A stretch of 64,000 nt of DNA, taken from assembly GCA_020057295.1 (NCBI GenBank), contig JAGVGF010000005.1:60357-124356 (forward strand), given 5' to 3'. Source of the stretch: an archaeon. Its GTDB lineage: Archaea; Nanobdellota; Nanobdellia; Woesearchaeales; UBA9642. A program made the position numbers and the translations under genes. Of this stretch, positions 38,822 to 60,829 are shown in pieces (positions within the stretch are counted from its first letter, which is position 1; each line of letters opens with the position of its first letter). The notes below the pieces were generated by a model. That model was not told the DNA's origin and made no database searches. It saw only the letters and a list, made by a program, of their open reading frames with translations.

Positions 38822-38855
38822 TTTCTAATTTATTTGACTGTGTTTTAGTTTTATT

Positions 38856-39650: not shown

Positions 39651-39677
39651 TTTATTATTAGATAAAGGTTATCTTAA

Positions 39678-41381: not shown

Positions 41382-41431
41382 AGAAACTCCGTCAAATAAT
41401 TTATGTAATAATTATTAATATAAAGACACAT

Positions 41432-42583: not shown

Positions 42584-42702
42584 ATTTTCTTACAACACTC
42601 ACCTATTAACACAATCTATTTATAAATAAATTCGACTACTTATATAATTTTGTTACGACTACGGAATATATACACTATTATTCTCTTTAATCAACTACAT
42701 AA

Positions 42703-43680: not shown

Positions 43681-46346
43681 ACTTCTAACCTTATTATTGA
43701 GGGTCCCCAAAGATAAGGCACTCCTCCTATAACTGTAGTTATTATCTCTAAATCTAAATTATTTATGTTAACTAAAACCTTGCCTGAATTTTCTGTATCT
43801 AGCTGTTTTAATAAGCTATATGTTGCTACATCATAAGTATCATCTAAATCGTAACTAATATTAACTGAAGTATAAGTGCAATTTTTTGTTCCCGCATATG
43901 CTGCTGGAACTTTAATAGTATTTATTTCTCCATCAACATATTCGACCGTCCAAGTACATCCGACATTTTTTTCTTTTATGTCTGTTCTTGCTACGGATGC
44001 TGTGACTAGTGCTGTATAAATTAAAGTATTATTATTTGAACAGTTCGAGCTATTTGTTGTGCTATCTCCTACGCGTAGAGAGATATTATTCGACTGACCC
44101 GGATAAAGCAATAATGAAGGTATTTGTATTAAGAAAGGATCTCCAAGAAGATCATAAGAAGAATTATATTGTGATAGATTGAAAACAACGTTTTCATTTA
44201 TTTTCAATAAATCTGTCCAATGATTACTTGAATAAGAAGCAGCATATGCGTCCTGAATTACTATGCCTGAAGGAATATCTATACTAACATTACAACTATT
44301 AAATTGCGGAGATTCTATAAGAACCGAAATCTTATTCTGTGTATCAATAGGATTTAAATCCTGATAATATAAATCTATATATGAATCTGTATGAAGTTTT
44401 GTGGGGCTAAAATTTCCGACAAGATTTATTGTTTGGGATGAAAAATTAGCTGCAATAAGTATTTGTTCAGAAATATTTCTATACACATCTTCAAGTTGCG
44501 ATGTATCTGTGACATTATAGTATAAAGAAGCATTGCACGCAATCTGTTTCATTATATTGTGTCCGGCTGCAGTCATAGCCGTACCAAAACCTATGGCGTA
44601 AACAGTTATATTGTTTTGACAAGCTAAAATACTAGCATTTATAGCCCAACTTTCAGATAAAGAATCGCTACCGCTTGTGCCTGTATAATCGTTGTAATTC
44701 GAACAATAATAATTTGGTTCTCCATCACTTAGCACAATCATAAATTTTTTATTAGTCGAAGAATTAACAAGATTTCTTGCATAATTTATACCACAACAAG
44801 TACATGTTCCTCCATTAGGAGAATATGTATCAATCTCGCTATCTAAAACACTCTCCACGTTAGTTAAATTTGTTGGTGTGTGCGCATCATTAGAAAAATC
44901 TATCAAGCCAACTCTATGTAGAGAAGATGCACCTAATACCACTTCGACAAATAATTTATCAGCATCTTTGGCTACATCTAGAAGCGTTTTTGAACATACA
45001 CTTTGATTAATTATACTATAACTTCTTGTAGAATATATTGGAGATATTCCACATTCGTTGTTATTGCATGAAACATTGTTGTATGCGCAAGTCGTTGTCA
45101 GCCAGAACCACCACCAAGATGCCTGTTTGTATTGATATCTGCACATTGTTTGATTGACATAAACGGCGCAATCATTCATGCTTCCAGATACATCTGTAAC
45201 CAAGAAGGAATCAGATGGAACCCCTGCATCTAAGACACTAATATTAGATAAATTTGTGTGAGCCATTCTTATAGGTATAGTGCTTGGAGGTATAGATAGA
45301 TTATTTTTTACAATAAATATGTTTCTAGTTGTATTTTGACCCGGATCTATAAACAACGTTTCGTTTCCAAAAGTAAAAAATGTAGAATATATACTGTCAT
45401 AAGTTATATTTAATGTTATATCTGTAATTATGCCTTGTACAGATACTGCGTCATAAAGATTTATGAATCCTGTTACTGAAGGGAGATAAACTCTTTTGTA
45501 TCCTGTTGCAACATTTTCTACTAGTGTATCAGTTATATATGTTGCTTTTATTAATCCTCCAGAGACATAAGAAATATTTAGGGGAGAAATAAAGGCAAAA
45601 GTAAAATTATTTGTTCCGGATATTAAAGAGGCATTGCAGGAAGTAATTGTCCAAAGATTTACCTGACCCGCTGCTCCAGAATAATTAGTTCCACACTGAT
45701 TTCCATTTATAAAAATTTCAAAAGATCCGGGAGTCTCTATCTTTATGTATGAATCAATGAGCTTAGTCGAATTAAAATCTGCAGGCAAATCTAATCTTAG
45801 AGTAATATTACCTTGTCCGATAAAGCCGCCGAAATAAGCGTAAGAAGAAGTTTTCTTATCACGAATTTTTTTCAGATAAGCGGACGAACTATATCCTGTT
45901 AAAGGAGCTCCTTTAACTATTCCAGAAATCATTCTATTAAATGTAAATAAACTCTTTTTTGAAGAATAATTTTTTATATATATCTCCTCATTATCTATTG
46001 ATAGTCTTAAACCACTACCAGTTATCAATTCCTCCGACATAACCGAACTAAATAGTTGTTGAGCCTTTACAGTATTGTTTAAAGCCCAATATTCTCCTAT
46101 CTGTTCTAATAATGTGTTGTTTAAGTTAGTGATATTTCCATTATCGAATTCTTGAGTAATAAAAGAATTATTTATTTCAGAAAGAGTTATTCCAGAAAAT
46201 ACTGTGAGTATATCTTGTGTCAAGAAGATTTTTTGTTCTACACCGGAAGAATTTTGTTCATATGTCGAGTAAATTAACAGTACAGCACCTATTAAGAGCA
46301 TTGATGCTAGCAAAGCATCCATTGTATAAAATATTGCTTTCTTCAT
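43671..46346 (-). CDS. pilin-like vWA-domain adhesin
   Basis: MKKA|IFYTMDALLA signal. MIDAS DVSGS, GGT, VLSDGEPN, VYAIGFG. Confidence 0.85.
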   Translation of the reverse strand: MKKAIFYTMDALLASMLLIGAVLLIYSTYEQNSSGVEQKIFLTQDILTVFSGITLSEINNSFITQEFDNGNITNLNNTLLEQIGEYWALNNTVKAQQLFSSVMSEELITGSGLRLSIDNEEIYIKNYSSKKSLFTFNRMISGIVKGAPLTGYSSSAYLKKIRDKKTSSYAYFGGFIGQGNITLRLDLPADFNSTKLIDSYIKIETPGSFEIFINGNQCGTNYSGAAGQVNLWTITSCNASLISGTNNFTFAFISPLNISYVSGGLIKATYITDTLVENVATGYKRVYLPSVTGFINLYDAVSVQGIITDITLNITYDSIYSTFFTFGNETLFIDPGQNTTRNIFIVKNNLSIPPSTIPIRMAHTNLSNISVLDAGVPSDSFLVTDVSGSMNDCAVYVNQTMCRYQYKQASWWWFWLTTTCAYNNVSCNNNECGISPIYSTRSYSIINQSVCSKTLLDVAKDADKLFVEVVLGASSLHRVGLIDFSNDAHTPTNLTNVESVLDSEIDTYSPNGGTCTCCGINYARNLVNSSTNKKFMIVLSDGEPNYYCSNYNDYTGTSGSDSLSESWAINASILACQNNITVYAIGFGTAMTAAGHNIMKQIACNASLYYNVTDTSQLEDVYRNISEQILIAANFSSQTINLVGNFSPTKLHTDSYIDLYYQDLNPIDTQNKISVLIESPQFNSCNVSIDIPSGIVIQDAYAASYSSNHWTDLLKINENVVFNLSQYNSSYDLLGDPFLIQIPSLLLYPGQSNNISLRVGDSTTNSSNCSNNNTLIYTALVTASVARTDIKEKNVGCTWTVEYVDGEINTIKVPAAYAGTKNCTYTSVNISYDLDDTYDVATYSLLKQLDTENSGKVLVNINNLDLEIITTVIGGVPYLWGPSIIRLEVWQ

Positions 46347-46354
46347 ATAATTCG

Positions 46355-46858
46355 TTAACTCCAAACGTAAAAAGTCATTCGTAATATTTGATTATCGTAA
46401 AAAACTATTCTATCGATCTTTGCTAAATTGGAATAAGTCAGATTTGATATTATTGGTTCGCAATCACTCGTGACAGGAACATTAAATCCGTAAATACATT
46501 GCGTAACATTAAGTATGCTTGTTCCGTTACTAAAGTAGAACAAATATTCTCCTGTTATTTGATAAGCGATTTTTGTTTTATTATATTCTAATAAAGAGTA
46601 ATTGAATAATTTCTCAGCATTTATTTTGTTATCTAAAGCTATTCCGGGAATTATAACATCGCTCGTTGTCCAGGTTTTAGGATATCCTTCCGATAGAACA
46701 TTATCTGAAAGATATACTGCTTCTCTATATGTTAAATCGTATGGCTCTGTAGTATTCATTGTTAATATTATCCTTACTGAGAGAAGCAATACAAATAAGA
46801 AAAGCATCATACCTATAATAAAATCAATACTCCACACTTGTCCTGTTTTTTTTATCAT
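46355..46858 (-). CDS. minor pilin-like protein
   Basis: KKTG|QVWSIDFIIGMMLF class III signal. SEGYP..W. Confidence 0.8.
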   Translation of the reverse strand: MIKKTGQVWSIDFIIGMMLFLFVLLLSVRIILTMNTTEPYDLTYREAVYLSDNVLSEGYPKTWTTSDVIIPGIALDNKINAEKLFNYSLLEYNKTKIAYQITGEYLFYFSNGTSILNVTQCIYGFNVPVTSDCEPIISNLTYSNLAKIDRIVFYDNQILRMTFYVWS

Positions 46859-46859
46859 T

Positions 46860-47273
46860 TTAGTTAATATATAATGTGTTATTCATTTTTCTTATGATAT
46901 TTTTTCCTTTTATGAAACTTCCATTTACTGATGGAACAACAAAAAATGTTTCCGTTGCCTTATAAGATAATATAAGATAGCCCGTACTATTATATGTCCC
47001 TGTTGTTATATTAAAATCTAAACCATTCACTGTTAAAGGAATATTTATTGGCCGTATATATCCGTCTTCCAAATTTGATGCTAATAATAATTCTTGCTGT
47101 AATGATCTACCAAAATCCATCAAGTCAGTATATGTTTTACGCGTAGTATTATCTTCAGAAAGATAAAAGACAGAAATCATGAGTATTATGATTATTGCGA
47201 AGCTTAAACCTACTAGTAACAAAAATTCTATTGCTATCTGACCACGATTTTTATTTGTCTGTAATGTTGACAT
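46860..47273 (-). CDS. minor pilin (class III signal peptide)
   Basis: NRG|QIAIEFLLLVG. Confidence 0.85.
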   Translation of the reverse strand: MSTLQTNKNRGQIAIEFLLLVGLSFAIIIILMISVFYLSEDNTTRKTYTDLMDFGRSLQQELLLASNLEDGYIRPINIPLTVNGLDFNITTGTYNSTGYLILSYKATETFFVVPSVNGSFIKGKNIIRKMNNTLYIN

Positions 47274-47694
47274 AGTTTTTTTCAGCTTTAAACGCTATTA
47301 CGTGCTGCCCGGAGAATGATCTTATAGATCCGGTTAGATTTGCCGATGTTTCTTTCACAACCACATAATTAAGGTCTGCTGTGGTGACATTAAATATTAT
47401 TAATGTATTATTTAATGTTACTGAGGTTATTCCTTCTGGAAAAGATATTATTAGTGTTCTTTGTGATGGCTCTCCAGCATAGTATACTTCTTCAGCATAA
47501 TCTGAAATTTTTGATGAGACCCTAAATATTTGTGCATTAGTTACATCTGCTTGAATGTTGGTTATCTGTTTAGCATATATTATTATTAATGGAAAAGTCA
47601 TCATAAATGCTATCCCAAATATTATTAGATATTCTATGCTAACTTGCGCTTTAGTGCACATTCTACAAGTATTACTAGAATTTTTACTCACCAT
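47251..47694 (-). CDS. minor pilin (class III signal peptide)
   Basis: TKA|QVSIEYLIIFG. Confidence 0.85.
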   Translation of the reverse strand: MVSKNSSNTCRMCTKAQVSIEYLIIFGIAFMMTFPLIIIYAKQITNIQADVTNAQIFRVSSKISDYAEEVYYAGEPSQRTLIISFPEGITSVTLNNTLIIFNVTTADLNYVVVKETSANLTGSIRSFSGQHVIAFKAEKNYVNITDK

Positions 47695-47879
47695 CTTTTA
47701 TCAATATAATTCTGTTATAGGTATTATATAAAGATAGTGTAAAAATCTTGTTTTAAAAAAATAAATATAAATTAATTGTGCTTAAAAAAAGAATAAAAAC
47801 AAAACATTTATATATTAGTATAGATAAAGGTATACTAACAATTTGTGTTTAATAGAAATTATAGACGAGGTGAATTAGT

Positions 47880-48365
47880 ATGAGTAAAAGAGGTCAAGCA
47901 GCCATGGAGTTTTTAATGACTTATGGATGGGCTATTGTAGTAGTTCTAGCAGCAATCGGTGCATTAGCGTACTTCGGTGTGTTAAGTCCGCAGAAACTAT
48001 TGCCAGAAAGAACAACTTTCCAAGCACCATTACCAAATGTAGATAACGCTGTCATCAGTAGAACAGCTAATAGTGTAGAAATTGCTTTCAGAAATAACAA
48101 GGGAGTATCAATCAATATTCCAGGCGGAGCAGGTAACTTTACATTAGTTGCATCAAGCCCAACAGTATGTGCAAATGCAGTAATGACTGGAACAGGCACA
48201 TTCGCAAATGGTGGAAATTTCCTATTAAAATGGGACTGTGATGATTTGAATCCTTTACCAGCAGTAGGAGACAAGTTTAAGGCAGACATCAGCTTTGCTT
48301 ATGTAAATACTGAGACTGGCCAAACGCTTCAACAAACTGGTTCCGTAGAAGGAAAATACAGCTAA
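47880..48365 (+). CDS. probable major type IV pilin
   Basis: MSKRG|QAAMEFLMTYGWAIVVVLAAIGALAYFGV. Strong GAGGTGA RBS, divergent TATA-containing promoter region and T-rich terminator. Confidence 0.88.
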   Translation: MSKRGQAAMEFLMTYGWAIVVVLAAIGALAYFGVLSPQKLLPERTTFQAPLPNVDNAVISRTANSVEIAFRNNKGVSINIPGGAGNFTLVASSPTVCANAVMTGTGTFANGGNFLLKWDCDDLNPLPAVGDKFKADISFAYVNTETGQTLQQTGSVEGKYS

Positions 48366-48417: not shown

Positions 48418-49380
48418 TTATTTAAGATTTATTAGAACAAACTTAGCCAACAAACTTTCTAATTGTAGATACTCATCAGATCCTTCAACCATCCTAAATT
48501 CACATTCTCCACAATCTTTAACCATTTCAAGTTTTTTATTAGGATCTATCTTTAGAGCCCATATCTCTTTCTGTACTTGTTTTATCGTATCTAATCCAGA
48601 TAATCCGTAATTTAACATTGTATCGAGTAATTTTGATTTTGCTTTAGGAAAGTCTTGCTTGACGCATAATTCTAATATTTCTAGAACTTCTTTTGGTCTT
48701 GCAAATGCTGCAACTTCAAAGACTATTTCTTCTGTTATTTTAGCATTTAATACAGCACATGATTGCATTATATTCTCTAACTTTCTGCAATCTCCTTCTG
48801 AAACTTCTACCAACGCGTCTTTTGCTTTTTCATCTATTTTTAACTTCTCTCTGTCAGCAATTTTATCTATTATTTCAAATAAGTCTGCTTTTTCTAATGG
48901 TTTAAACCTAAATACTGCACATCTTGATTGAATTGGCTCAATAATTTTTGAAGAATAATTACAACTTAAAATAAATCTACATGTCTGTGTATAATTCTCC
49001 ATTGTTCTTCTTAATGCTTGCTGTGCCTCTCTTGTTAATGCATCACATTCATCTAAATAAATTATTTTGAATGGAACGTCTCCTATTGCTTTTGTTCTTG
49101 CAAATTCTTTTACTTTTACACGAACAACATCTATTCCTCTTTCATCTGAAGCGTTTAATTCTAAGAAATTTTCTCTCCACGAGTCTCCGTAGAGTTGTTT
49201 TACAGTAACTAAAGATAGAGTTGTCTTTCCAATGCCTGCAGGTCCTGCGAAAAGTACGTGAGGCATATTTTTATTTTCAACAAATGCCTTTATTCTTTTA
49301 ACGATTTCCTTCTGTCCTTTAACATCCTTAAAAGAATCTGGCCTGTATTTCTCTGTCCATAAAGAATACTCATCTAACAT
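48418..49380 (-). CDS. rfcS: replication factor C small subunit
   Basis: WTEKYRP, GPAGIGKTT, LELNASDERG, LDECD, AQQALRRTME, IQSRC. Confidence 0.96.
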   Translation of the reverse strand: MLDEYSLWTEKYRPDSFKDVKGQKEIVKRIKAFVENKNMPHVLFAGPAGIGKTTLSLVTVKQLYGDSWRENFLELNASDERGIDVVRVKVKEFARTKAIGDVPFKIIYLDECDALTREAQQALRRTMENYTQTCRFILSCNYSSKIIEPIQSRCAVFRFKPLEKADLFEIIDKIADREKLKIDEKAKDALVEVSEGDCRKLENIMQSCAVLNAKITEEIVFEVAAFARPKEVLEILELCVKQDFPKAKSKLLDTMLNYGLSGLDTIKQVQKEIWALKIDPNKKLEMVKDCGECEFRMVEGSDEYLQLESLLAKFVLINLK

Positions 49381-49449: not shown

Positions 49450-50484
49450 TTATCTCTCAAATCCTCCATTAAGCCAATCATCATCGCCGCATACTCCGTC
49501 TTTACCATTCATAGAGGAGGCATTATATGTTGGAAAAGATTTAACGATGTTCCATCTTGAAATATCCCATGCAGGAGGAATAATTGCGACGATATTTCTA
49601 CAATAATCGTCGTTCATATCTATCTTGCCGTTGTTATTATCATCAATACCGTTATTGCAATTAAGCTCATTACCGCCACAAACAGTTCCATCTATTTTTG
49701 TCACACCAAGGCAAGAAGGATCTGCACAATCAACTAATCCGTCATTATCATTATCAACAACATCACTGCATACTGCAGAATTATCTTCTATAGTTACTCC
49801 GCAACAATAAATCGCATCTAAACGATCATTTCTTCCACCACCATTTTGTCCGCCACAAACAACGGGATGTGCTTCTGGACAGAACATGTGAAGCCAAGAA
49901 TTAGTTCCAACATAATATTGATCATATTTACCCACATAGTCAGAATAGTTTACAATAAATCCTTGAGTTTTACAACACGTCAACATGTCAATTCCATTAC
50001 CCCATCCTAAAAGAGCTATACCACAAACAGTAGAATTGCTTCCAAACACACCACCATTACAAAAAAATGATCCTCCAACAGTCGCACTATCAATAGTATA
50101 TGCACTAGTACGATTTACATAAACATTTGGTCCTCCGAGATTAGAACAACGTAAATAACGAGGAAGCCACGCATGATCATTACTATTCATTCCACCAATA
50201 GCAGCTTGACCATCATCACATTGGAAAATGGTTTCTCCTATTTCTTTAGTAAAATCTGGAACAGAGAACAGAGAAGCATTGTATTTTTTTATAACACAAG
50301 ATGCTGCATTCAAAACATTATCACACGTATAACCTGCATCACAAGGAAAAGAACCAACGAAGTCTACAGCACTATAGCAGCCTCCGCGATCATAACAGTT
50401 GTATGGGCAAGGACCAGTTAATGCTGTAACAAGCGCCATCGATAATAACATACCCGTTACTATAAGAATTAATAATTTTTTCAT
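49450..50484 (-). CDS. secreted Cys-rich protein A' ending in CGDDDWLNGGFER
   Basis: Signal peptide, Cys-rich lectin-like core and two CxDxxDNDxDGxxD-type repeats. Confidence 0.8.
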   Translation of the reverse strand: MKKLLILIVTGMLLSMALVTALTGPCPYNCYDRGGCYSAVDFVGSFPCDAGYTCDNVLNAASCVIKKYNASLFSVPDFTKEIGETIFQCDDGQAAIGGMNSNDHAWLPRYLRCSNLGGPNVYVNRTSAYTIDSATVGGSFFCNGGVFGSNSTVCGIALLGWGNGIDMLTCCKTQGFIVNYSDYVGKYDQYYVGTNSWLHMFCPEAHPVVCGGQNGGGRNDRLDAIYCCGVTIEDNSAVCSDVVDNDNDGLVDCADPSCLGVTKIDGTVCGGNELNCNNGIDDNNNGKIDMNDDYCRNIVAIIPPAWDISRWNIVKSFPTYNASSMNGKDGVCGDDDWLNGGFER

Positions 50485-50485
50485 A

Positions 50486-53400
50486 TTATTTCACTCTTAG
50501 AATATTTGTGAAGTATTGCCAAATACTTGTTGTCTTGTTTGTAATTATAGTTATATCTTGACCAGAATTACTTATATTAGTTTTCAATAGTCCTATTCCG
50601 ACTTCATTCGATACTGTTTTGTTTATATCATATTCATGTAACGGATTGGTGTTTGTATTTGTTCCTTGATAATTTATTAATACTGTTTTTAGTATTTGCC
50701 TTTCGTTTTCATCATACTTCATATCTTCTATTGCGCGTACTTCTAATCCTGTTCCGTTATTTAAGATATATATTTTGTCATAACTTGTCGTATAATTTAT
50801 GGCGTTGAATATTTTAGTATTGTATATAATATCTTTGGTTCCGAATATAGTTTGAAAGAAACCTTTAATTTTTTCATATACGAACGCAAATCCTGTTCCT
50901 GTATCTATAGATAATATTTTGTGGCTTGATATTATAATATAATTATATTTTTCATTATAATATATTCTGAAGTCAGTTCCTGAAGCGCAACGAGTATAAT
51001 TTGAATTAATATTCATACCTGTTGTGCTGCAATCTGCTAAAGAAGCTAATGAACCTGGAGAAATAGTTTGTTGCATAATTCCACTATAATCTGAAATTCT
51101 TCCATTAATGAAAGTTTTAACATCTTCTGATGATTGATCTTTTAACACTATTCCCGTCATTATTCTTGTGTCATTCGGACCATGTTTTGCTGTTAAAATA
51201 CATGCAGATAAAACATCGCTTGATGTCAAACCATATAATTTAACAGTGTCTGTGTCACAATATAGTGTGTAAGGCTTTCCTTCTGATAAATTTTGTAAAG
51301 CCACTGCAACAATATAAGATTTGGTTGTCCAATTTCCAGAATAACAATAATGATTTCCCGTATGTATTGTAAACGGAGAATCTGATATTATTTGCCCGTC
51401 ACGTATGCATCCTTTATTACTATCATAAGTAGAACTAACAAAACAATCTGTCTCTTTTGCACAATATCCTGAAGTCTTATAATTCCAATCATACTTTATA
51501 GAACTCAAAGTCCATGATGCATTACCATCTGAAGATTTTATACATCTATAACCAACAGTTTTATCTTGCAAACTAGTGTTTACATGTCCATAATATAATC
51601 CGTATTTTGTTGCATTCAATATTTGATTCCATATAGGAGAATAAGTAGCATTATTAGTCCATAAATCACTACTAACACAAGTTGTTCCATCCCAACAATA
51701 ATCAGCAGGACAGCAACCTGTTTGTGTTGAAAGAGATTCTGGGAATTCTGTCTTGTAAATGTTATCTATATTTGCTTGTGTTTCAGTTAAAGAGATATCA
51801 TCAAAGAATACACCGTTAGAAAGTAATGTGTTAGCTGGAGAACATCCATCAACAACTAATCGTAAATGTACTTTTTTAAAATATGGTTTTTCGCCATTAA
51901 CTCCTGCTGTTGCTTTTGAATTATAAGATATATTGAAAGTTGTAGAGACAGCTTGCCATGTTCCAGGATTGCTCTTGACAGGAGCTCCTAAACTAATATC
52001 TGTAAAACAAGCATCTTCATTCCAATTCAATGAGCTAGTACATTTTCCATCATTAAAATCTATATATGCATTACAATTTTCTCCGTTAATAATTTTTGCT
52101 GAAATAGTATAATTAGTATCTGCTTTTAAATCGAACTCTATGGATGTTACAGCGGAACCATCTTTAATATCTTTTAATGTTCCAGAAGTAAGACCCCATC
52201 CTTGCATACCATTCGAATTCCATCCATTAATATTTATTCCGCAGTCAAGAGAACAAGAAGCTGTTGTCTCTAAATAATCGCATATGTCGTCTCCACATCC
52301 ACGAACCATACAAGGTTTTGCTTCTAGACGTCCATAACAAGTAGAATTACCTATATCTGTTGCATTATCACACTGTTCACCAGTGCCTATGTAACCATCA
52401 CCGCAAACATTTAATTTACAAGATCTAGAATCAGTCTGACCAAAAAAACTAGAACCTGTACAAGTGCCATTTGGAGAAACGCCTGAATCACATTGCTCAC
52501 CAGAGCCCAGATAAGTGTCACCACAAGCATTTAATTTACAAGATCTAGAATCAGTCTGACCAAAAAAAGTACAAGAAGAACCACTAACAGTTACACCTTT
52601 ATCACATTGTTCAAGTACACCATCACTATTACTAATAAAAGAAGTATTCCAGTAATTATCTCCACAAATATTATTTTTACAAGATCCTGCGCCGAGTGTA
52701 TTACTAGTACATCTAGGACCTCCAAGTGGACCGCTATCACATTGTTCTAAAATCGTCGGATCCAATGATGAACCGGATGTGTGAATAACATAATCACCAC
52801 AACGCGTACATTCAGAGTCAGGATTAGAAAGCGAACTGTCGACATTTCCATCTAAATCATTATCTATGCCATCATTGCATGCAGAGAGAGTGTTCTCATG
52901 TGATACTGTTTCCTCTTGAATAATTTCCCATCCAGGGGACCAATAATTTCCTATAGCATGATATTTTTTTTGTGTGAAATGCATAGAACTAGATTCAAAA
53001 ACTCTTAGACCCGCAGTGCCTCCTGAAGTTAAGTTAACCCATAACGCGCAAGGAACTCGTGGCTCTAAAGCATCATTAGTTCCTATAGAATTACTCCAAC
53101 TATGCCATGCACCATCATAATATTGTTGATATATCTTGTAATCATTGCCAGAACCAAAAATATCTAAACGATTAACACCATTATTTGTAATTGTTAAACC
53201 AGAACTAAATTGTCCGTCTGATGCGTCCGTAATATGTACTGGACCACCCCATGTTGCTCCACCATCATTAGAATATAATTGAAAAGCTCTAAACGGAGGA
53301 GTTCCTAGAGCAACAACATCAATTCGATTGGTTCCCCAAGAAGTCGCTGAGGGTGCAGAAGAATAAACTCCACCACCAGAAACAGTGAGCCAATTATGTA

Positions 53401-54064
53401 CACCACCACCAGAAGCGGCTTGTGCAATTGCAAATTCATTATACCACATTGAACCACTATTATTTACTGCTAATAAAATTATATTATTACCACCAGAATA
53501 AACTGCAGCTATTCCTCCGGATTTAGCGTCTGCTCTTCCAGAAAAAGTCATAGAACCTGATGGACCATTACCAAGGTTGGTATTTGTCGATTTCCATGAC
53601 GACCAGTCATCAAAAATTCTGCTACTTAAAGGAGCATAACGATAATATACACGTGTTGATGTTGCAACAAATATAAATTTCTTATCAATAGTTGTCACAG
53701 CAGAAATTTGACTTAAAAGAGGAGTAGATAGTATATCAGGATTTCCTAAATCTTCAACTTTCCAAACCGAGCCAAGCATAGTGTGATCTCCTCGACCATC
53801 TGCACCAATCCATCCATCATCTAAAACCATTCTCAGAACGCGATATTCGGAAGAGCTAATATTTCTAACAAAATATACTTCTGTAGCACGTAGAGAAAAT
53901 GCAGGATAACCCAGACCAGTTACGGCATCGTCTGAAGAAGTGGAATACGTTTGTATAGCACTACATCCTAAAACTGAAGAACTCCAAGCAGGTATTGCAA
54001 CTCCGATAGGAAAAGACAACAACATAACAAATAGTAAAACAACAAACAATATGTTTTTCTTCAT
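50486..54064 (-). CDS. large secreted protein C: lectin-like beta-propeller, Cys-rich CGD/EQCD repeats, jelly-roll domain, Cys-rich tail
   Basis: Signal peptide. SAPSATSWGTNRIDVVALG and NRLDIFGSGND repeats. CGD..EQCD repeats. VFFDDISL. Confidence 0.8.
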   Translation of the reverse strand: MKKNILFVVLLFVMLLSFPIGVAIPAWSSSVLGCSAIQTYSTSSDDAVTGLGYPAFSLRATEVYFVRNISSSEYRVLRMVLDDGWIGADGRGDHTMLGSVWKVEDLGNPDILSTPLLSQISAVTTIDKKFIFVATSTRVYYRYAPLSSRIFDDWSSWKSTNTNLGNGPSGSMTFSGRADAKSGGIAAVYSGGNNIILLAVNNSGSMWYNEFAIAQAASGGGVHNWLTVSGGGVYSSAPSATSWGTNRIDVVALGTPPFRAFQLYSNDGGATWGGPVHITDASDGQFSSGLTITNNGVNRLDIFGSGNDYKIYQQYYDGAWHSWSNSIGTNDALEPRVPCALWVNLTSGGTAGLRVFESSSMHFTQKKYHAIGNYWSPGWEIIQEETVSHENTLSACNDGIDNDLDGNVDSSLSNPDSECTRCGDYVIHTSGSSLDPTILEQCDSGPLGGPRCTSNTLGAGSCKNNICGDNYWNTSFISNSDGVLEQCDKGVTVSGSSCTFFGQTDSRSCKLNACGDTYLGSGEQCDSGVSPNGTCTGSSFFGQTDSRSCKLNVCGDGYIGTGEQCDNATDIGNSTCYGRLEAKPCMVRGCGDDICDYLETTASCSLDCGININGWNSNGMQGWGLTSGTLKDIKDGSAVTSIEFDLKADTNYTISAKIINGENCNAYIDFNDGKCTSSLNWNEDACFTDISLGAPVKSNPGTWQAVSTTFNISYNSKATAGVNGEKPYFKKVHLRLVVDGCSPANTLLSNGVFFDDISLTETQANIDNIYKTEFPESLSTQTGCCPADYCWDGTTCVSSDLWTNNATYSPIWNQILNATKYGLYYGHVNTSLQDKTVGYRCIKSSDGNASWTLSSIKYDWNYKTSGYCAKETDCFVSSTYDSNKGCIRDGQIISDSPFTIHTGNHYCYSGNWTTKSYIVAVALQNLSEGKPYTLYCDTDTVKLYGLTSSDVLSACILTAKHGPNDTRIMTGIVLKDQSSEDVKTFINGRISDYSGIMQQTISPGSLASLADCSTTGMNINSNYTRCASGTDFRIYYNEKYNYIIISSHKILSIDTGTGFAFVYEKIKGFFQTIFGTKDIIYNTKIFNAINYTTSYDKIYILNNGTGLEVRAIEDMKYDENERQILKTVLINYQGTNTNTNPLHEYDINKTVSNEVGIGLLKTNISNSGQDITIITNKTTSIWQYFTNILRVK
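52408..52568. repeat. exact 41-bp direct repeat at 120-bp period inside protein C
   Basis: catttaatttacaagatctagaatcagtctgaccaaaaaaa at 52408-52448 and 52528-52568. Encodes FFGQTDSRSCKLN twice. Confidence 0.9.
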
Positions 54065-54315
54065 TTTCTTACCGTCCGATAAATTCCTTGTATTAAATCT
54101 GTTCCCGCATATCCTGCAAGTAATGCAATTCTATAATCTTCAATTGTTAGTAATGCACAAAACATTCCTATTAGGCCTGATATAATTATTGTAAACCAAA
54201 ATTTTGTACTATTAAATTTTTCTTTACCTGTAAAAACCTTATGTTTAAATAGACCAACTATTGCACGTACAATTCCACCAAAAATTCCGAATAAAGTTAA
54301 TAATAAGATTTCCAT
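54061..54315 (-). CDS. small 3-TM membrane protein
   Basis: GIFGGIVRAIVG...LAGYAGTDLI. Abuts gene B and overlaps gene C by ATGA. Confidence 0.75.
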   Translation of the reverse strand: MEILLLTLFGIFGGIVRAIVGLFKHKVFTGKEKFNSTKFWFTIIISGLIGMFCALLTIEDYRIALLAGYAGTDLIQGIYRTVRK

Positions 54316-57012
54316 TTAATTGAAACCTCCGTTCTTAACTAAGTTAGGACCGGGAGGAACTGTCTTAATAGTTATTACCGGATAATTTGTTTTTAATTTC
54401 TTCATTTCAACGCCACCAGTTGTGTTGAGTATTGTTACATACTCTCTCCATGCACCATTTGCACAATAATAATCATTCACAATAACACACTGTCTATTGA
54501 TTGATTTCTGAACAAGAGGTTTGAATTGATCTCCAACAGCAGAGTCATAGCTACTTCCTGAAAGTTTTCCATCGTAAGTTGTATTCAATAATTTAGTTTC
54601 GCTACCAGTGGGAATCTGACAACCGATAAATTCATTAGATAGATTATATAATACTCCACGATAATTATAAATTTCAAATAGATTTTTGTCATCTTTCTCA
54701 TCTATGTTTTTGCTCTTAGAAATAGACCATCCAGGCAAAACTATAGAACCGTTAAAGCATCCGTTGTCTGTATCATTATAAAATTCTCCATAATTTCCGC
54801 TTCTAGTATTATACCCGCAACATTGATGTCCTGTCCAAGTAAAAGAGGCATAAGAATTACATGTTTCTACATATTTTCCATAACCATTCATCCAAGCATC
54901 CGGAGCTGTAAAGAACAAACTACTGAAAGGATATAATGTTAGATTAGGAGATAATGAAGATATCCATGAACCAAATCCTCCAGTACAATAATAATTTTTA
55001 GAATTATACTGAAGATTTGCTTGTGTATCGGCGGCATCTGTAGAAACAGGATTTAGGAAAACGTTATCTAAAGCAACATAAGTATTTACTGTAGAAGTAA
55101 AAGATAATTTTGTAAATTTCTGCGATTTCTCAGAAGATCTTATGGGAATTATTGTGTGGTGCCATCGCTGTGAAGCATTTCCATTTTGAACATAATTCAA
55201 CAAACGTCCGTAATCAACGCCGTTGATAAACACATTATTTATAGTTGTATCACTGCTATACATAATATCAAACTCAATTGTTGCAAAGTGTGTCATGTAT
55301 AGTGGATTGTCTGTGGTTTCATCTGACCCTGCAGGGTACACCGTTAATAATCTTACCCAATCAATAATTTTTTTACTCGAAGAATCATATGCATCATATG
55401 TTAATACGGTATTAGGTGTGACTCCTGAAGAAGTTACACGAGATTTTCCGGCAGCAATAGAAAGTGCATCAAACACCGAGACAGTTCCTGTTGAGAAATC
55501 CTTATTAGAACATCCGAAGCCGTAGCAGCATTCACTAAATATGCTCTTTCCATCCTGCTTAAAACACATAAATGAATCGTTAGACACTTGATTAAATGCT
55601 GTAAAACTAAATAAGGAATTTCCAGTATCAGAAATTTTTCCTAAGCAACATTCTCCAGAAGCAGTTGTAAAATGTCCTGAATCACATTGTTGTCTTATAG
55701 AATCGTAAATGATTCCTGCAGAGCAGTCAAGAGGAACAGAAACACAATCAGTTGTGCCTGGCTCTCCAAAACAGCAATCTTCCGAGCCACTAGATGTTTT
55801 TAAAATAATTCCGTTCTTACATAATGGTTTTGCTGGATCGTTACAAAGTTTACCTCTATTACCTGTTTGTGCAGCGCAAGATTTTTGAGGATCGTAATAT
55901 GTTCTATTAATACATATCTGAGCATCCTTACAAAAACGCTTTTCAATAAATGAAGAACTACTTCCGAATTTATTATTTGAACAGACAGGATCTAATTGTG
56001 GAAATTTTGCTCTGAAAGAAGCATCTGCAAGATATTTTGCACATATATCATTAACAGGAACAGGACTTCCACTAATTAAAAAATTACATCTACAATTACT
56101 TATTCCTGAAGGATCATCTAAATTAATATTGTTTTTACAACAAGGAGCCGCTCCTCCATTAAGATTACAATCTACATAAGACTTAGATAAATCGGCAGGA
56201 TCTGGGAAAGGATCTATGTTATTAAATATTTCATAACAAGGTATGCTTGTTCTCTGATATTTCATATTAAAAGTGTTATATTCTAGAACAGCATTCGCGC
56301 CGGAACCATCAACACCCATGGCGTCGCAATAATACCAGTTTTCAGAATTTGAAATATGATCGGAAATTCCAAAAGGAGTATTCACAGGAATTATTTTGTA
56401 TGAGTTAATTCCTTTGACAGCAGAAAGCCAAGTATAATTTGTTTTATCAGAATTTTTAGGATTCCATATATTATAATCATAACATACATATTGTTTTGTA
56501 GTATCAACAAATCCGTAATCTTGCAATGCTGAAAAAGGATCATATACGTTTAATGAACTAACTTTTTCTATTCTCACATTATCAAAGATTGCAGAAATTG
56601 TTGGATCATTATTGTTTAAACTTATAGTTACTGATCCCTCGCTTGTGATATTAAAAAAACCTTTTAATAAAGTCCATGTACCGGTTCCATAAACCTCTAA
56701 CCATTTGTAACCGTTGTAATCGGCCTGTACTGTGTCTCCTGTAAGATATAAATAAGAATTAGAACTTCCATAAATCCATACGGAATACATATACCTTCCT
56801 ACTGGCAACGAGATAGTTTTAGTAGCAGCAGTTGATCCTGAAACCGCTCTAGTAATATTAGCTGCACACAAACCTGTTTTAGCAACAGAAGTATAAGTAC
56901 ACTTTCCAGCATTGTTACAAGTCCACTCTTTAACATCTCCCACAGGACATGCTGCATACGCAAAACTAATACTAAGAATGAATATAACTGTAAAAAGTAA
57001 ATATTTACCCAC
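54316..57012 (-). CDS. large secreted Cys-rich protein B, N-terminal jelly-roll, ending PNLVKNGGFN
   Basis: GTG start and signal peptide (SFAYA|A). YMYSVWI...WTLL...AIFDNVRIE. Confidence 0.8.
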   Translation of the reverse strand: MGKYLLFTVIFILSISFAYAACPVGDVKEWTCNNAGKCTYTSVAKTGLCAANITRAVSGSTAATKTISLPVGRYMYSVWIYGSSNSYLYLTGDTVQADYNGYKWLEVYGTGTWTLLKGFFNITSEGSVTISLNNNDPTISAIFDNVRIEKVSSLNVYDPFSALQDYGFVDTTKQYVCYDYNIWNPKNSDKTNYTWLSAVKGINSYKIIPVNTPFGISDHISNSENWYYCDAMGVDGSGANAVLEYNTFNMKYQRTSIPCYEIFNNIDPFPDPADLSKSYVDCNLNGGAAPCCKNNINLDDPSGISNCRCNFLISGSPVPVNDICAKYLADASFRAKFPQLDPVCSNNKFGSSSSFIEKRFCKDAQICINRTYYDPQKSCAAQTGNRGKLCNDPAKPLCKNGIILKTSSGSEDCCFGEPGTTDCVSVPLDCSAGIIYDSIRQQCDSGHFTTASGECCLGKISDTGNSLFSFTAFNQVSNDSFMCFKQDGKSIFSECCYGFGCSNKDFSTGTVSVFDALSIAAGKSRVTSSGVTPNTVLTYDAYDSSSKKIIDWVRLLTVYPAGSDETTDNPLYMTHFATIEFDIMYSSDTTINNVFINGVDYGRLLNYVQNGNASQRWHHTIIPIRSSEKSQKFTKLSFTSTVNTYVALDNVFLNPVSTDAADTQANLQYNSKNYYCTGGFGSWISSLSPNLTLYPFSSLFFTAPDAWMNGYGKYVETCNSYASFTWTGHQCCGYNTRSGNYGEFYNDTDNGCFNGSIVLPGWSISKSKNIDEKDDKNLFEIYNYRGVLYNLSNEFIGCQIPTGSETKLLNTTYDGKLSGSSYDSAVGDQFKPLVQKSINRQCVIVNDYYCANGAWREYVTILNTTGGVEMKKLKTNYPVITIKTVPPGPNLVKNGGFN

Positions 57013-57060
57013 CCATAACCACCATCTTTTGATTTAACGCGTTATTCATATTTATAAATC

Positions 57061-58521
57061 TTACCTCTCGAATCCTCCATTAAGCCAATCATCGTCACCA
57101 CAACAACCATCATAACCATTTGATGCTGATCTATAAGCAGAATTAATTCCTGTTGAAATATAACCATTATTATTAACTGAAGCATATGAAGAAATGTAAT
57201 TACTTGATGGACATATTCCTTTGTATATTAAATCTGATTGTAAATTATAACAGTCCGGATCTTCCATATCTATCAGACTATCATAATCATTATCATATTC
57301 ATCATTACAGGCATTTGGTATCTCTAATTTTGTTATAAAATCAATATTTTCTCTAGTATCTAATACTGTTCCAGTCATTGTCGTTTGGGAAGCTGTTCCT
57401 GCACCACCATCTGATCCTCCTTCACTCCAATCACATCCATCATAGTGTCTCCCACCACCTGCACCGCTTTTTAAGAAAAATATTAAAGGAGATATTCCTG
57501 ATATGTCAATATGCGTCATATCTATTTTAGGATCTATTTTTTGTGCGCTAAATATTATAGTTCCTCCGTTCCCTCCTCCTCCACCGCCACCAGTACCACC
57601 ATGATCTGTAGATGATCCACAATCACAATCTTCTCCGCCACCTGCACCACCAGATCTTCCTGCACCACCATTGGCTTGATATTGTCCTGTTCCATTAATT
57701 ATTACAGCAAAAATTGATAGCGCTCCACCGCCACCACCGCCACCGCCACCAGTACCTGTATTACCCCATTCTCCTGAACTATCACACGCATCTTCTCCTC
57801 TCTGTCCATAACTTCCACTCTCTCCTTCGACAGACAAAACACCATAATTATTTAGTACTTCTTTAACATTTAAATTTACGTTGGCACCTGCCTTTCCTCC
57901 TGCACCACCCGCTTTATTTCCCCCATGACAATCAGCACTTCCACAACCGTTATGATCTCCGCCACCTTTCGTGCCTGCCTTTAGTTTGGCACCGCCTGTA
58001 CCTCCAGCTCCACCTGCACCACCAGAATCTTCTTTGTCTCCGCCTGTTCCTGCAGAACCTCCACCGCCAGAGGAAGCTAAGGAATTATAAAACCATAATT
58101 TTGCTGCGGCATTAATTGTTAAATTTTTAAAATAATAATTTACGGTTGTGTCTTTACCAGTATCTATATTTTGCGATGAGGAAACAATACATGCTGCAGA
58201 TAATTTTGTCTGATCTTCGGAAGTAATACACATTCCTCCATCACAATAAATACCTCTTTGTGTAGTACATTGACTTGGTGTTATCCCCACATAACAATAT
58301 CCATTTTCACAAGTATATCCCGTATCGCACGCATCTCCAGGATCTGTCCAATCAGGAGCACAATATCCTCCGGTTCTACATTCAGAACTATCATCGTGCA
58401 TAACTATTCCACACGCGCTAGAATCATAACATACTCCTTCCGGACAAGAACCGGCAATAGCATAAACCGCAACAGGAATTAACAGAATACAACCTATTAA
58501 TAGCACCCACCCTTTATTCAT
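57061..58521 (-). CDS. secreted Gly/Cys-rich protein A ending in CGDDDWLNGGFER
   Basis: Signal peptide, poly-Gly GGGGG.GG repeats and CNDEYDNDYDSLIDMEDPDC. Confidence 0.8.
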   Translation of the reverse strand: MNKGWVLLIGCILLIPVAVYAIAGSCPEGVCYDSSACGIVMHDDSSECRTGGYCAPDWTDPGDACDTGYTCENGYCYVGITPSQCTTQRGIYCDGGMCITSEDQTKLSAACIVSSSQNIDTGKDTTVNYYFKNLTINAAAKLWFYNSLASSGGGGSAGTGGDKEDSGGAGGAGGTGGAKLKAGTKGGGDHNGCGSADCHGGNKAGGAGGKAGANVNLNVKEVLNNYGVLSVEGESGSYGQRGEDACDSSGEWGNTGTGGGGGGGGGALSIFAVIINGTGQYQANGGAGRSGGAGGGEDCDCGSSTDHGGTGGGGGGGNGGTIIFSAQKIDPKIDMTHIDISGISPLIFFLKSGAGGGRHYDGCDWSEGGSDGGAGTASQTTMTGTVLDTRENIDFITKLEIPNACNDEYDNDYDSLIDMEDPDCYNLQSDLIYKGICPSSNYISSYASVNNNGYISTGINSAYRSASNGYDGCCGDDDWLNGGFER

Positions 58522-58660
58522 ATTGCTTTCTCAAGGTTTTTTTAATATAAATCTTTCGATTTTCAAGCATAAAATATGCTTAAATAACTTCTATCTGGGT
58601 TGTAATGATATACACCTTTATATATTAAAAAGTATTACTCGTTTTATGGAAGGTGCTAAT

Positions 58661-60829
58661 ATGAAGAAAATATTGTTTATCATGTTATTAATTATAGGTC
58701 TAGCAGGATTAACTGCATGTAACATTAATACTGCTCCTGAACCAACCAATACTATAAATACCTTTTCTAATCTTACAAGTTCTCAGGATTTAAAAAAATT
58801 CAATAATATTGACGAATTCAGATCTTTTCTGTCTTCGCAATCTCCTGATCAAGTTCAAAATACTCGTGGAGGAATGATGTTTAAAAGTTTAGGTGCATCA
58901 GTAGATATGGTGCAGTCAAATTCGGAAGTCGCACCTGCTGCTAGTGGAGCAAATGATTATTCGCAAACAAATGTACAAATTCGAGGTGTTGATGAAGCAG
59001 ATTTTGTAAAAAATGATGATAAATATATTTATATGATTGCAGATAATAAACTAATTATAATAGATGCAATTAGTGGAAAAGATAGTAAGATTGTTTCGGA
59101 AACAAATTTGTTAGATAAAAAGGTTCAACAATCTACTGTTAAAGAATTATTTTTGAATAATAATCAAGTGATTGTTTTTTTAGATTCTTATAGTAAAACA
59201 TATTATTTTGAAAAATATAATATTATGCCTATAGAAACCTACACGCAAAACACGTTAGCTTATGTTTATGATGTTACTGATAAAGTAAATCCTAGACTAA
59301 TACAAACATACACTATTAGTGGCGCATATTATGATTCTAGAATGATTAATGATACAGTATATATTATTAGTCAAGATAATCTTTATGACTTCATACATTA
59401 TAATGGTCCGATGATTACATATGCAGAAAAATCTATAAGACCTACAATTTATTATTTTGATAATCCTGAGCAAAATTATCAGATGAATACCATTACTTCA
59501 ATTAATTTGGATAATAAGGAAGTTGTTGATAGTGAATCATTTATGCTTGGCTACGGTAGCACGTTAATGGTTTCTGAAGATAATATCTACATCGCATATC
59601 AAAAGCAAAGATATTGGTGTTGGAGCTGGAGATGTACTACACAAGAAAACGATAATAAAGAGAGATTTATGGAAGTAATTCTTCCAAGATTACAAGGAGA
59701 GATTAAAGATAAGATAACAGCAATTGTTAATAAGAATCTTGATGCTGAGACAGAATGGAAAGATATATCTACAGAGTTCTCAAAATTTTACACAGACTTA
59801 AAAGATAATGAAAGTGCGCAGGATAAATATGATGAGATGTTTGGCAACATAGAAACTGCACTTAGTGAATATGATGCAAAAAAAGCCATAGAAAATAGTA
59901 AAACAATAATACATAAAATAAGTATTAATAAAGGATTAATAGAATATTCTGGTAAGGGTTCTGTTGATGGAAGATTATTAAATCAATTCTCAATGGACGA
60001 ATATAATAAAAATTTACGTGTAGCTACGAGTGTAGATTTGTGGTTAAATGGTGGAAGAAAGCAATATAATAATGTGTATGTACTAAATAATGATATGAAT
60101 ATTGTTGGTAGTTTAAAAAATCTTGCTGAGAATGAATCGATATATAGTACAAGATTTATGGGAGATAAATTGTTCTTGGTAACATTTAAACAGATTGATC
60201 CTTTCTTTGTAATAAATTTGAGTGATCCATCAAATCCTAAAGTTTTAGGATATTTAAAGATTCCAGGATATAGCTCATATCTTCATCCAATAAATAATAC
60301 CCTAATCGTTGGTGTTGGTAAAGAAACGGGAGAAAATGAGAATGGTGGAACAATAACTACGGGTGTTAAGATATCTTTATTTGATGTGAGTGATTTTAAT
60401 AATCCTAAAGAAGTAGATAAATATGAGATAGGATTACAAGGAACAGATAGTCCTATATTATATGATCATAAGGCATTCTTATACAGTTCTACAAAAAATA
60501 TTTTAGTAATTCCTGTTACAGAGATAACTTCTAAAATAAAGAGTGGAGAGTATAGTTATAAAACAACAGTATGGAATGGTGCTTACGTTTTTAAGGTGAG
60601 TGCTGAAGGATTTTATCTATCTGGAAAAGTAAGACATTCCAGTGCTGAAACACAATATTATTACTGGTTTAATCAAGCAAGTGTAAGAAGAAGTCTATAT
60701 TTAGATAACAACCTATTTACAATATCATCTAAATACGTTAAAGTAAATGATTTGAACAACAGTTTAGCAGATTTAAACACAATACTGTTGCCATACAGTG
60801 ACGAAAACCCTTATCCTTTACTACGTTAA
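58661..60829 (+). CDS. secreted beta-propeller-domain lipoprotein (Beta_propel family)
   Basis: Lipobox LTAC. YSQTNVQIRGVDEADFVKND, LNQFSMDEY, IYSTRF, LVTFKQIDP, LKIPGYSSYLHP. Confidence 0.9.
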   Translation: MKKILFIMLLIIGLAGLTACNINTAPEPTNTINTFSNLTSSQDLKKFNNIDEFRSFLSSQSPDQVQNTRGGMMFKSLGASVDMVQSNSEVAPAASGANDYSQTNVQIRGVDEADFVKNDDKYIYMIADNKLIIIDAISGKDSKIVSETNLLDKKVQQSTVKELFLNNNQVIVFLDSYSKTYYFEKYNIMPIETYTQNTLAYVYDVTDKVNPRLIQTYTISGAYYDSRMINDTVYIISQDNLYDFIHYNGPMITYAEKSIRPTIYYFDNPEQNYQMNTITSINLDNKEVVDSESFMLGYGSTLMVSEDNIYIAYQKQRYWCWSWRCTTQENDNKERFMEVILPRLQGEIKDKITAIVNKNLDAETEWKDISTEFSKFYTDLKDNESAQDKYDEMFGNIETALSEYDAKKAIENSKTIIHKISINKGLIEYSGKGSVDGRLLNQFSMDEYNKNLRVATSVDLWLNGGRKQYNNVYVLNNDMNIVGSLKNLAENESIYSTRFMGDKLFLVTFKQIDPFFVINLSDPSNPKVLGYLKIPGYSSYLHPINNTLIVGVGKETGENENGGTITTGVKISLFDVSDFNNPKEVDKYEIGLQGTDSPILYDHKAFLYSSTKNILVIPVTEITSKIKSGEYSYKTTVWNGAYVFKVSAEGFYLSGKVRHSSAETQYYYWFNQASVRRSLYLDNNLFTISSKYVKVNDLNNSLADLNTILLPYSDENPYPLLR

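Follow-up and report, generated by a model that had tools for sequence, protein, structure and literature searches.

Gene fission inside a jelly-roll domain of a secreted archaeal protein and a proposed re-attachment of its exchangeable heads by β-strand complementation

In the chaperone-usher pili of bacteria, subunits of Ig-like fold are assembled with a periplasmic chaperone and an outer-membrane usher, the N-terminal extension of the next subunit being the β-strand donor and the adhesin an acceptor. Split protein genes are known from Nanoarchaeum equitans and other DPANN archaea, where they mostly encode cytoplasmic enzymes that are cut between domains and whose products presumably reassemble. 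Donor-strand complementation has reportedly been published for archaeal filaments, namely the threads of Sulfolobus and the bundling pili and fimbriae that depend on twin-arginine translocation (Tat). In a preprint, the cannulae of Pyrodictium are described as jelly-roll subunits that are secreted by the general pathway and polymerize without a chaperone; each subunit has a groove, flanked by its strands B and K, that takes up the N-terminal strand A of its neighbor, with Ca2+ sites as reinforcement (bioRxiv 10.1101/2024.12.30.630787). Here, we describe an operon of an archaeon of the Woesearchaeales, located in a 64,000-nucleotide (nt) stretch of contig JAGVGF010000005.1 (the window, to which positions refer unless another contig is named), in which a secreted protein that the other genomes of the genus encode as one polypeptide is divided between two genes, A and B, the cut falling inside a jelly-roll domain that resembles carbohydrate-binding modules (CBMs). 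A, B, and three further open reading frames (ORFs), S, C, and A′, are co-oriented on the minus strand and tightly packed in one operon (58521 to 49450; Table 1) of a 1.2-Mb genome (G000; 31% GC, 6 contigs). Genome size, an RFC small-subunit gene, and class III signal-peptide pilins suit a small-genome archaeon, probably a DPANN-like one. A first-pass annotation of the window, made from the letters and the ORF translations, had listed A, B, C, and A′; these ORFs, their ends, and the jelly-roll stretches in B and C are real, and S is a fifth ORF that had not been listed. The same annotation had given each of the four proteins its own signal peptide, and judged by eye their N termini do have that form: an n-region that contains K precedes a hydrophobic core and a small-x-small site.

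Syntenic loci were taken from 12 other genomes of the genus (G001 to G012). By BLASTP and frame inspection, the head and the B core form one stop-free ORF in all 12 loci, a large secreted protein of 1047 to 1565 amino acids (aa) that is 27 to 38% identical to the B core and whose head differs from genome to genome. A HMMER scan of B residues 1 to 169 against 1.84 billion representatives returned seven matches with two true relatives among them, P0001, a 98% identical orthologue, and P0003, a 1421-aa metagenome protein; of the other matches whose sequences were compared, P0004, P0006, and P0007 are repetitive proteins matched over short stretches. Residues 508 to 647 of P0003 are homologous to the N-terminal stretch of B (HMMER, E 4.9e-6), and the protein is collinear with A plus B, its A-like part being 40% identical (residues 232 to 484) and its B-like part 35%. 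P0003 reads NGYDACCGDDDYWLNGNFE, with neither a stop nor a signal peptide, into a stretch that resembles the N terminus of B and ends in LFDDLRVEK. The tail of A aligns to CCGDDDYWLNGNFE of P0003 and to CCGDDVLNGDFE of the fused protein of G003, both of which run on into a jelly-roll. The motif at the jelly-roll start is WLNGNFE in P0003, and in G003 a Pfam CBM_4_9 match begins at LNGDFE, which equals profile position 4 (E 1.2e-4; 22.9 bits vs. a cut-off of 25.9). The (N)L(I/V)xNGxFE start is therefore found in place in both of these relatives, and in G000 it ends A and A′ and lies outside B, where the alignment of the N-terminal domain retains the final FDxxxxEK strand. The annotation had noted a jelly-roll-like stretch in B without an NGGFE of its own, which agrees with the complete, motif-bearing homologous roll of P0003 and G003.

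A and B are in the same reading frame, and ~39 codons are inserted between strands 1 and 2. This insert begins with A's stop, has three more in-frame stops in its spacer, and goes on through a GGTGG element and the GTG start to a signal-peptide-like segment. Because head and B core are one ORF in the 12 genus loci and in P0003, and because P0003 and G003 run strand 1 straight into the jelly-roll, sequence comparison identifies the A|B boundary as a true gene fission of one CBM4_9-like jelly-roll, between strand 1 and strand 2. Among the 13 genomes of the genus, LNGGFE occurs at two sites in G000 (A and A′) and at one each in G012 and G008, in unrelated proteins. Word-index searches returned a 96% orthologue as the sole match for B, and for the junction region of P0003 seven matches, of which the six besides P0003 itself cover 7 to 23% of the query and add no further jelly-roll relatives. 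Two other routes to the present arrangement were considered. Stop-codon readthrough or recoding that would join A and B is ruled out by the four in-frame stops, and duplication of B's signal peptide from elsewhere in G000 by a genome search that found only chance-level matches and no source for the insert.

The split is also carried by a sister strain, on a metagenome contig (L025) that is independent of G000 and agrees with it in the stop of A, the spacer, and the GTG and signal peptide of B. Amino acid identity between the two is 95% for the neighboring Beta_propel protein, 96% for B, 98% for S, and 92% for C over the 857 aa before the contig end, and the A tail plus spacer is identical at 98 of 100 nt. 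By Nei-Gojobori estimates of the ratio of non-synonymous to synonymous substitution rates (dN/dS) between G000 and the sister strain, B as a whole has a value of 0.058 (144 synonymous and 37 non-synonymous differences; dS 0.30), its strand-less N-terminal domain 0.076 (14 and 4), and S 0.04, and the signal peptide of B shows two synonymous differences and no non-synonymous one. B has been under strong purifying selection since the strains diverged. The fission thus has collinear single-ORF orthologues on one side and a selected downstream product on the other; the bodies of the heads have diverged too far or been replaced, which leaves their tail as the one comparable part.

The heads vary and the tail stays. 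NGGF occurs eight times in the 3605 stop-to-stop segments of at least 60 aa across G000, and three of the eight occurrences are at the C termini of A, B, and A′, with one or two residues left to the stop; these tails are not due to chance. A and A′ share their last 13 residues and the stop, with only 8 of 32 upstream residues identical. Their last 13 codons differ at five synonymous and no non-synonymous sites (Fisher p 3.6e-5), the eight codons of WLNGGFER at two and none (p 0.036), and WLNGGFER is invariant in A, A′, and A″, the head protein of the sister strain encoded on L025. A″ (400 aa, ending in GLDGCCGDDDWLNGGFER) is of the same Gly-rich class as A but is only 39% identical to it over its last 144 aa. 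At the A locus, the ~93% DNA identity between G000 and the sister strain breaks off after the first 26 nt of A and returns for its final 17 codons, which indicates an exchange of heads driven by recombination. The replaced segment spans 58496 to 57113 in the window and 8776 to 9900 on L025; one breakpoint is at codon ~9, within the signal peptide, and the other ~17 codons short of the stop. A is 36% identical to the head of G005 over 435 aa; A′ belongs to another head class and is 33% identical to the head of G011 over 224 aa. Among the genus loci compared, A′ was found in G000 only, and the eight relatives that have both a C-like gene and the replication factor C (RFC) gene leave no room for an A′-like gene between them. 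Queried with the C-terminal 60 aa of A′, the word index returned A′ as its sole match and missed even the known positive A, which makes this search uninformative. The Gly-rich region of A consists of GGxGG-type runs alternating with short β-like stretches; this repeat class, which has no Pfam family, is also present in P0003, G005, and the sister-strain head, and it possibly forms a β-solenoid.

Table 1. Positions of the operon, its parts, and its neighbors in the window
Feature	Position	Strand	Description
A	57061..58521	-	Secreted Gly-rich head, 486 aa, ends in CCGDDDWLNGGFER; equivalent to the N-terminal part of fused relatives
A Gly-rich region	57400..58050	-	Residues ~150-370, repetitive
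A tail	57061..57102	-	CGDDDWLNGGFER plus stop; CGDD hinge and jelly-roll strand 1; proposed donor strand
A-B spacer	57013..57060	-	48 nt; three further in-frame stops; GGTGG Shine-Dalgarno-like element 6 nt 5′ of B's GTG
B	54316..57012	-	898 aa; GTG start 48 nt after A's stop; ends in PPGPNLVKNGGFN
B signal-peptide-like N terminus	56953..57012	-	MGKYLLFTVIFILSISFAYA; no such segment here in fused relatives
B N-terminal domain	56518..56952	-	Residues 21-165; CBM4_9-like jelly-roll without strand 1; proposed acceptor
B core	54358..56517	-	Residues 166-885; Cys-rich stalk common to all genus relatives
B mid β-sandwich	55048..55410	-	Residues ~535-655, inside the B core; AlphaFold2 model
B tail	54316..54357	-	PPGPNLVKNGGFN plus stop; ancestral C-terminal element, family-wide
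S	54061..54315	-	84-aa small membrane protein; begins directly after B's stop
C	50486..54064	-	1192 aa; secreted (predicted), Cys-rich; 4-nt overlap with S
C tandem repeats	52367..52686	-	Residues ~460-565
C jelly-roll	51773..52237	-	Residues ~610-764; CBM4/22-like; own first segment ININGWNS
A′	49450..50484	-	Second secreted head, 344 aa, Cys-rich class; starts 1 nt after C's stop; ends in VCGDDDWLNGGFER
A′ tail	49450..49491	-	CGDDDWLNGGFER plus stop
Beta_propel (PF09826) secreted protein	58523..60829	+	Divergent neighbor; Pfam E 1.4e-151
RFC small-subunit gene	48418..49380		Between the type IV pilus locus and the operon
Type IV pilus locus	37583..48365		Two T2SSF genes, T2SSE ATPase, von Willebrand factor A (VWA) protein, class III signal-peptide pilins; Pfam
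VWA-domain protein	43671..46364	-	897 aa; inside the pilus locus

The most economical reading of this arrangement is that gene fission was followed by strand complementation in trans, by which the heads would be re-attached to the B stalk; we put it forward tentatively, as a reading with a real chance of being right. The ancestor would have been one secreted protein made of a signal peptide, a variable head, a CGDD hinge, a CBM4_9-like jelly-roll, and a Cys-rich stalk. Fission in the G000 lineage fell exactly between strand 1 (WLNGGFE) and strand 2. A kept strand 1 as its last residues, and B, which acquired its own GTG start and Sec-type signal peptide, opens with the strand-less roll. After separate secretion, the C-terminal strand of the head could insert beside the last jelly-roll strand of B, and this β-strand (donor-strand) complementation would hold head and stalk together non-covalently and possibly close a Ca2+ site of the CBM type, in which the Glu of the motif and the Asp of the last strand have roles. 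With a plug as short as a 13-residue tail, the same socket could take different heads; A and A′ in G000 and A″ in the sister strain would then be exchangeable tips on one stalk. The product would be a tip-swappable, fast-evolving surface protein with a probable adhesive function.

The likeness of the domains concerned to CBM4, CBM9, and CBM22 (Pfam CBM_4_9, PF02018) lies in the profile start of the G003 roll, the structure matches of the C domain, and a final FDD/FDN strand. C residues 598 to 791 were modeled by AlphaFold2 (AF2) from a 10-row alignment as a β-sandwich with a predicted local distance difference test (pLDDT) of 71.8 and a predicted template modeling score (pTM) of 0.67. Foldseek gave 10 matches to this model at E ≤ 0.001, the best being 3p6b_A (CBM4; E 5.4e-5; TMq 0.43), with 1ulo and 4xup_B (CBM22; TMq 0.50) among the further top matches and template modeling (TM) values of 0.43 to 0.56. 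By hhalign, the C-like rolls match the G003 roll with a probability of 43% and an E of 2.5e-4 over the core only, the N termini being unaligned. The ESM Atlas placed the N-terminal domain of B mostly among clusters without a name; one at rank 19 (score 0.92), in which 11% of members carry CBM_4_9, is a weak lead. A PDB sequence search with the G003 roll gave nothing meaningful. The domains differ from CBM_4_9 in Pfam scores that are below the gathering cut-off or absent, in the TM values of 0.43 to 0.56, in extra disulfide-type Cys residues, and, for B, in a first strand that is encoded by another gene. The domains of B, C, and G003 are outside the CBM_4_9 family by Pfam's threshold, though probably of its fold class, which the C model matches at modest TM values. 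The only confidently modeled part of B lies further on, within the conserved core, where AF2 gave pLDDT values of 70 to 86 for residues 550 to 650 in a second β-sandwich (with the stretches FATIEFDIMY and YVALDNVFL). A complex prediction of the A tail (45 aa) with B residues 21 to 175, run without controls, gave ipSAE values of 0.00 and 0.01 and carries no weight either way.

Several observations weigh against re-attachment by strand complementation. A, A′, and B are predicted from DNA sequence, and the split has been seen in two closely related strains only. The tail of A and A″ lies within the conserved recombination flank (98 of 100 nt), so its sameness in this pair cannot count as separate evidence that the tail is selected. 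Of the five synonymous differences between A and A′, three fall in the CGD codons of the hinge, and the CGDD hinge is family-wide even without a following jelly-roll, so the strand proper rests on two differences. Full-length B, modeled by AF2 from a 15-row family alignment, has a mean pLDDT of 45.1, with ~30 for the N-terminal domain and ~25 for the tail, values too low to reveal a groove or even the fold of that domain. No Pfam CBM match was found at E ≤ 10 in the N-terminal domain of B, and none in the C segment. By inspection, the module after the conserved DG.CGDD hinge varies by genome, being a jelly-roll in G003, a Cys-rich linker in six genomes, another roll-like domain in two, and nothing in G005. 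The hinge is conserved in family members with and without a jelly-roll behind it, so that for part of the tail the cause of conservation is not B, and because several relatives have no jelly-roll after the hinge, the domain is dispensable for the family.

The last two points favor the alternative that fission was not followed by reassembly. A, A′, and B would then be independent secreted proteins, the roll of B would fold without strand 1, either as it is or after remodeling, and the tail would be kept for the hinge module or for another role. We regard this explanation as somewhat unlikely and as deserving serious attention. It leaves unexplained why A′, whose site and head class both differ from those of A, stops exactly one residue past the same strand, why WLNGGFER is invariant over three heads, and why the rest of the B jelly-roll is kept at the low dN/dS of its N-terminal domain.

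A second alternative takes the shared 3′ end as a DNA homology handle for the swapping of head cassettes; A′ would be a cassette held in reserve or displaced, and protein complementation would be irrelevant. Recombination has clearly replaced the head between the sister strains, from the signal peptide to ~17 codons before the stop, and the 3′ ends of A and A′ are 80% identical over 60 nt, with 23 nt in a row the same. However, a two-sided cassette repeat between A and A′ was looked for within G000 and rejected, the repeat existing at the 3′ end only; because a 5′ homology block is lacking, a two-sided exchange is not set up. The differences between the two tails are all synonymous, at five sites in the 13 shared codons, which places the constraint at the peptide level and not at the DNA level, and A′ has its own start, a signal-peptide-like N terminus, and an intact 344-aa frame abutting C's stop. 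A DNA handle as the whole explanation is unlikely.

The first-pass annotation had extended strand complementation beyond the heads, with the same type of domain split twice at the same point, so that B in turn would donate a strand to C. Of the two splits, that between A and B alone can be demonstrated; no relative continues the B tail into a jelly-roll. An (L/I)K..PPGxNLIxNGxF-like element closes the B core in all 13 family members with a complete C-terminal end (with a canonical N(G/S)xF in 10), 11 of the 13 have the B-type tail without any split, and it is followed by nothing (G002, G005, and the sister strain), by a few residues, or by a small Cys-rich knot, never by a jelly-roll. The tail of B is, from this distribution, an ancestral feature of the family and not the product of a second split in G000. 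The annotation had also taken the C roll to lack its first segment. ININGWNS directly precedes it, and GW(N/T)(S/T)...GW stands at the roll start in 10 of 10 C-like proteins, with an invariant G and W in the alignment and a W-to-W spacing of 7 to 8, which is the F-to-W spacing of the canonical NGGFExGxxGW. In the AF2 model, I and WN of ININGWNS are in β-bridges (pLDDT ~63), and because of these bridges and the CBM4 and CBM22 structure matches, the C roll appears to have a first element of its own. This element, together with a B tail that is present in members without any split, speaks against donation from B to C. The C-terminal ~740 aa of C are shared with the C-like genes of the relatives, and the one point that favors the B-to-C step is that a C-type roll is present in all 10 loci that reach that far, G000 included. 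Of the single A-B-C polypeptide that had been suggested as a thing to look for, the fusion of head and B is present in all 12 genus loci; the C-like protein is a separate gene in nine. In the full chain, exchangeable heads would donate a strand to the stalk and the NLIxNGxF tail of B would do likewise to a further jelly-roll, that of C or of another B, giving a non-covalent, possibly Ca2+-locked head-stalk-base adhesin that a host-dependent archaeon re-tips with the stalk unchanged; we consider this quite unlikely.

That the tails are C-terminal sorting or processing signals (for archaeosortase, PGF-CTERM-like, or another tag) would account for a similar motif at the ends of three proteins of one operon and for the family-wide conservation of the B tail. 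Archaeal signals of the PGF-CTERM/archaeosortase type require a transmembrane helix and a basic tail downstream of the motif, whereas these proteins end one or two residues after NGGF, and in the fused relatives the same residues are internal and open a CBM_4_9-like domain, making this explanation highly improbable. That the split is an artefact of assembly or annotation, or that a pseudogene is decaying here, would suit the common reading frame of A and B but is next to inconceivable, because the same split, with A's own stop and three more in the 48-nt spacer, is carried by the independent contig L025 and the dN/dS of B is low, which also disposes of the first-pass concern that the stops and signal peptides might come from misassembly.

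Strand complementation between head and stalk would be a plausible variation on a known donor-strand mechanism. The annotation had known of no such assembly in archaea, a view now outdated by what is published on the threads, bundling pili, and Tat-fimbriae of archaea and on their Ca2+-dependent jelly-roll cannulae. The cannulae are the closest mechanistic precedent. In the proposed likeness, the cannula proteins (CanA, CanX, and Hyper2) and the TasA/AbpA-type bundling pili share with A and B an archaeal Sec-secreted jelly-roll whose strand 1 is supplied in trans with no usher or chaperone, the strand lying between the second and last ones and the joint being strengthened by Ca2+ sites; CanA is likened to A/B by mechanism and not by sequence homology. 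Cannula subunits are all alike and form a homopolymer through their N-terminal strands, whereas here the donor would be the C-terminal tail of a different protein in a 1:1 head-stalk pair, with several alternative donors and an origin by a recent, traceable gene fission. The subunits of donor-strand filaments each have both donor and acceptor; A and A′ would be donors only, and B has the proposed acceptor plus its tail, so that the self-polymerizing feature is absent. With the chaperone-usher pili, the system would share a tip module joined to a stalk by one β-strand that completes a β-sandwich, but the fold there is Ig-like and here a jelly-roll, and the adhesin is the acceptor there, while the head is the proposed donor here. 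As in the split genes of Nanoarchaeum, one protein of the relatives is two genes in a small-genome archaeon; unlike in those, both halves have a secretion signal, the cut lies inside a β-sandwich, and there are several alternative first halves. The fused members of the family (P0003 and G001 to G012) have the same hinge, the B core at 27 to 38% identity, the NLIxNGxF C-terminal element, and, in the genus loci, the order Beta_propel, big ORF, S, C-like gene, and RFC, but they are single polypeptides with varying heads and post-hinge modules and no extra head gene of the A′ type.

If the heads do dock on B, this would be a natural β-sandwich split into two separately exported proteins and reassembled outside the cell, and a heterotypic, one-to-one use of donor-strand complementation, the archaeal cases so far being homopolymer filaments. 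An archaeon with a small genome and a probable dependence on a host would also have a simple means of exchanging adhesin tips horizontally in a fast-evolving surface locus while keeping its conserved stalk, and the peptide and domain could serve as a pair in protein engineering. Even without docking, the locus offers a selected intradomain gene fission, a secretion signal that arose de novo, and an allelic replacement of heads between strains that are ~93% identical in the flanks.

Gene order is largely preserved around the operon. The Beta_propel gene is divergent in 10 of the 12 genus loci, the big ORF is present in 12 of 12, and S in five of the nine loci reaching that far. Nine of the 12 have a C-like gene (the contigs of the other three end before it), and eight of these nine also the RFC gene. 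Pfam bore out the first-pass placing of a type IV pilus locus next to the operon, and the VWA-domain protein inside it may be an adhesin of the pilus, its gene being next to those for a PilB-like ATPase and the two T2SSF proteins. A, B, and A′ match no Pfam family in a Pfam scan. For C, only weak, sub-threshold DUF4215 repeats were found, which coincide with tandem 120-nt (40-aa) Cys-rich repeats of the form FGQTDSRSCKLNxCGDxYxGxGEQCD with 85% DNA identity. In G011 (L014, 8539 to 14259), the B-like and C-like ORFs share a frame with one stop codon between them, probably by chance; they overlap or are out of frame in the other relatives.

S has only sub-threshold, holin-like Pfam matches. It is 69 to 79% identical in G004, G010, G002, and G005, with a partial match in G001, in a genus across which B and C are only 27 to 38% identical. 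Where S is present (G002, G010, G005, and G004), the B-like protein stops at or shortly after NGxF, and where it is absent (G011, G012, G006, and G008), a tail of ~12 to 15 aa beginning GGxCP follows NGxF. The Cys-rich knot of ~48 aa that closes the proteins of P0003 and G001 has a copy in G000 on a different contig from that of the operon (C3, 212881 to 213018), within a 5642-aa open frame, and it occurs in tandem copies in many genomes of the order.

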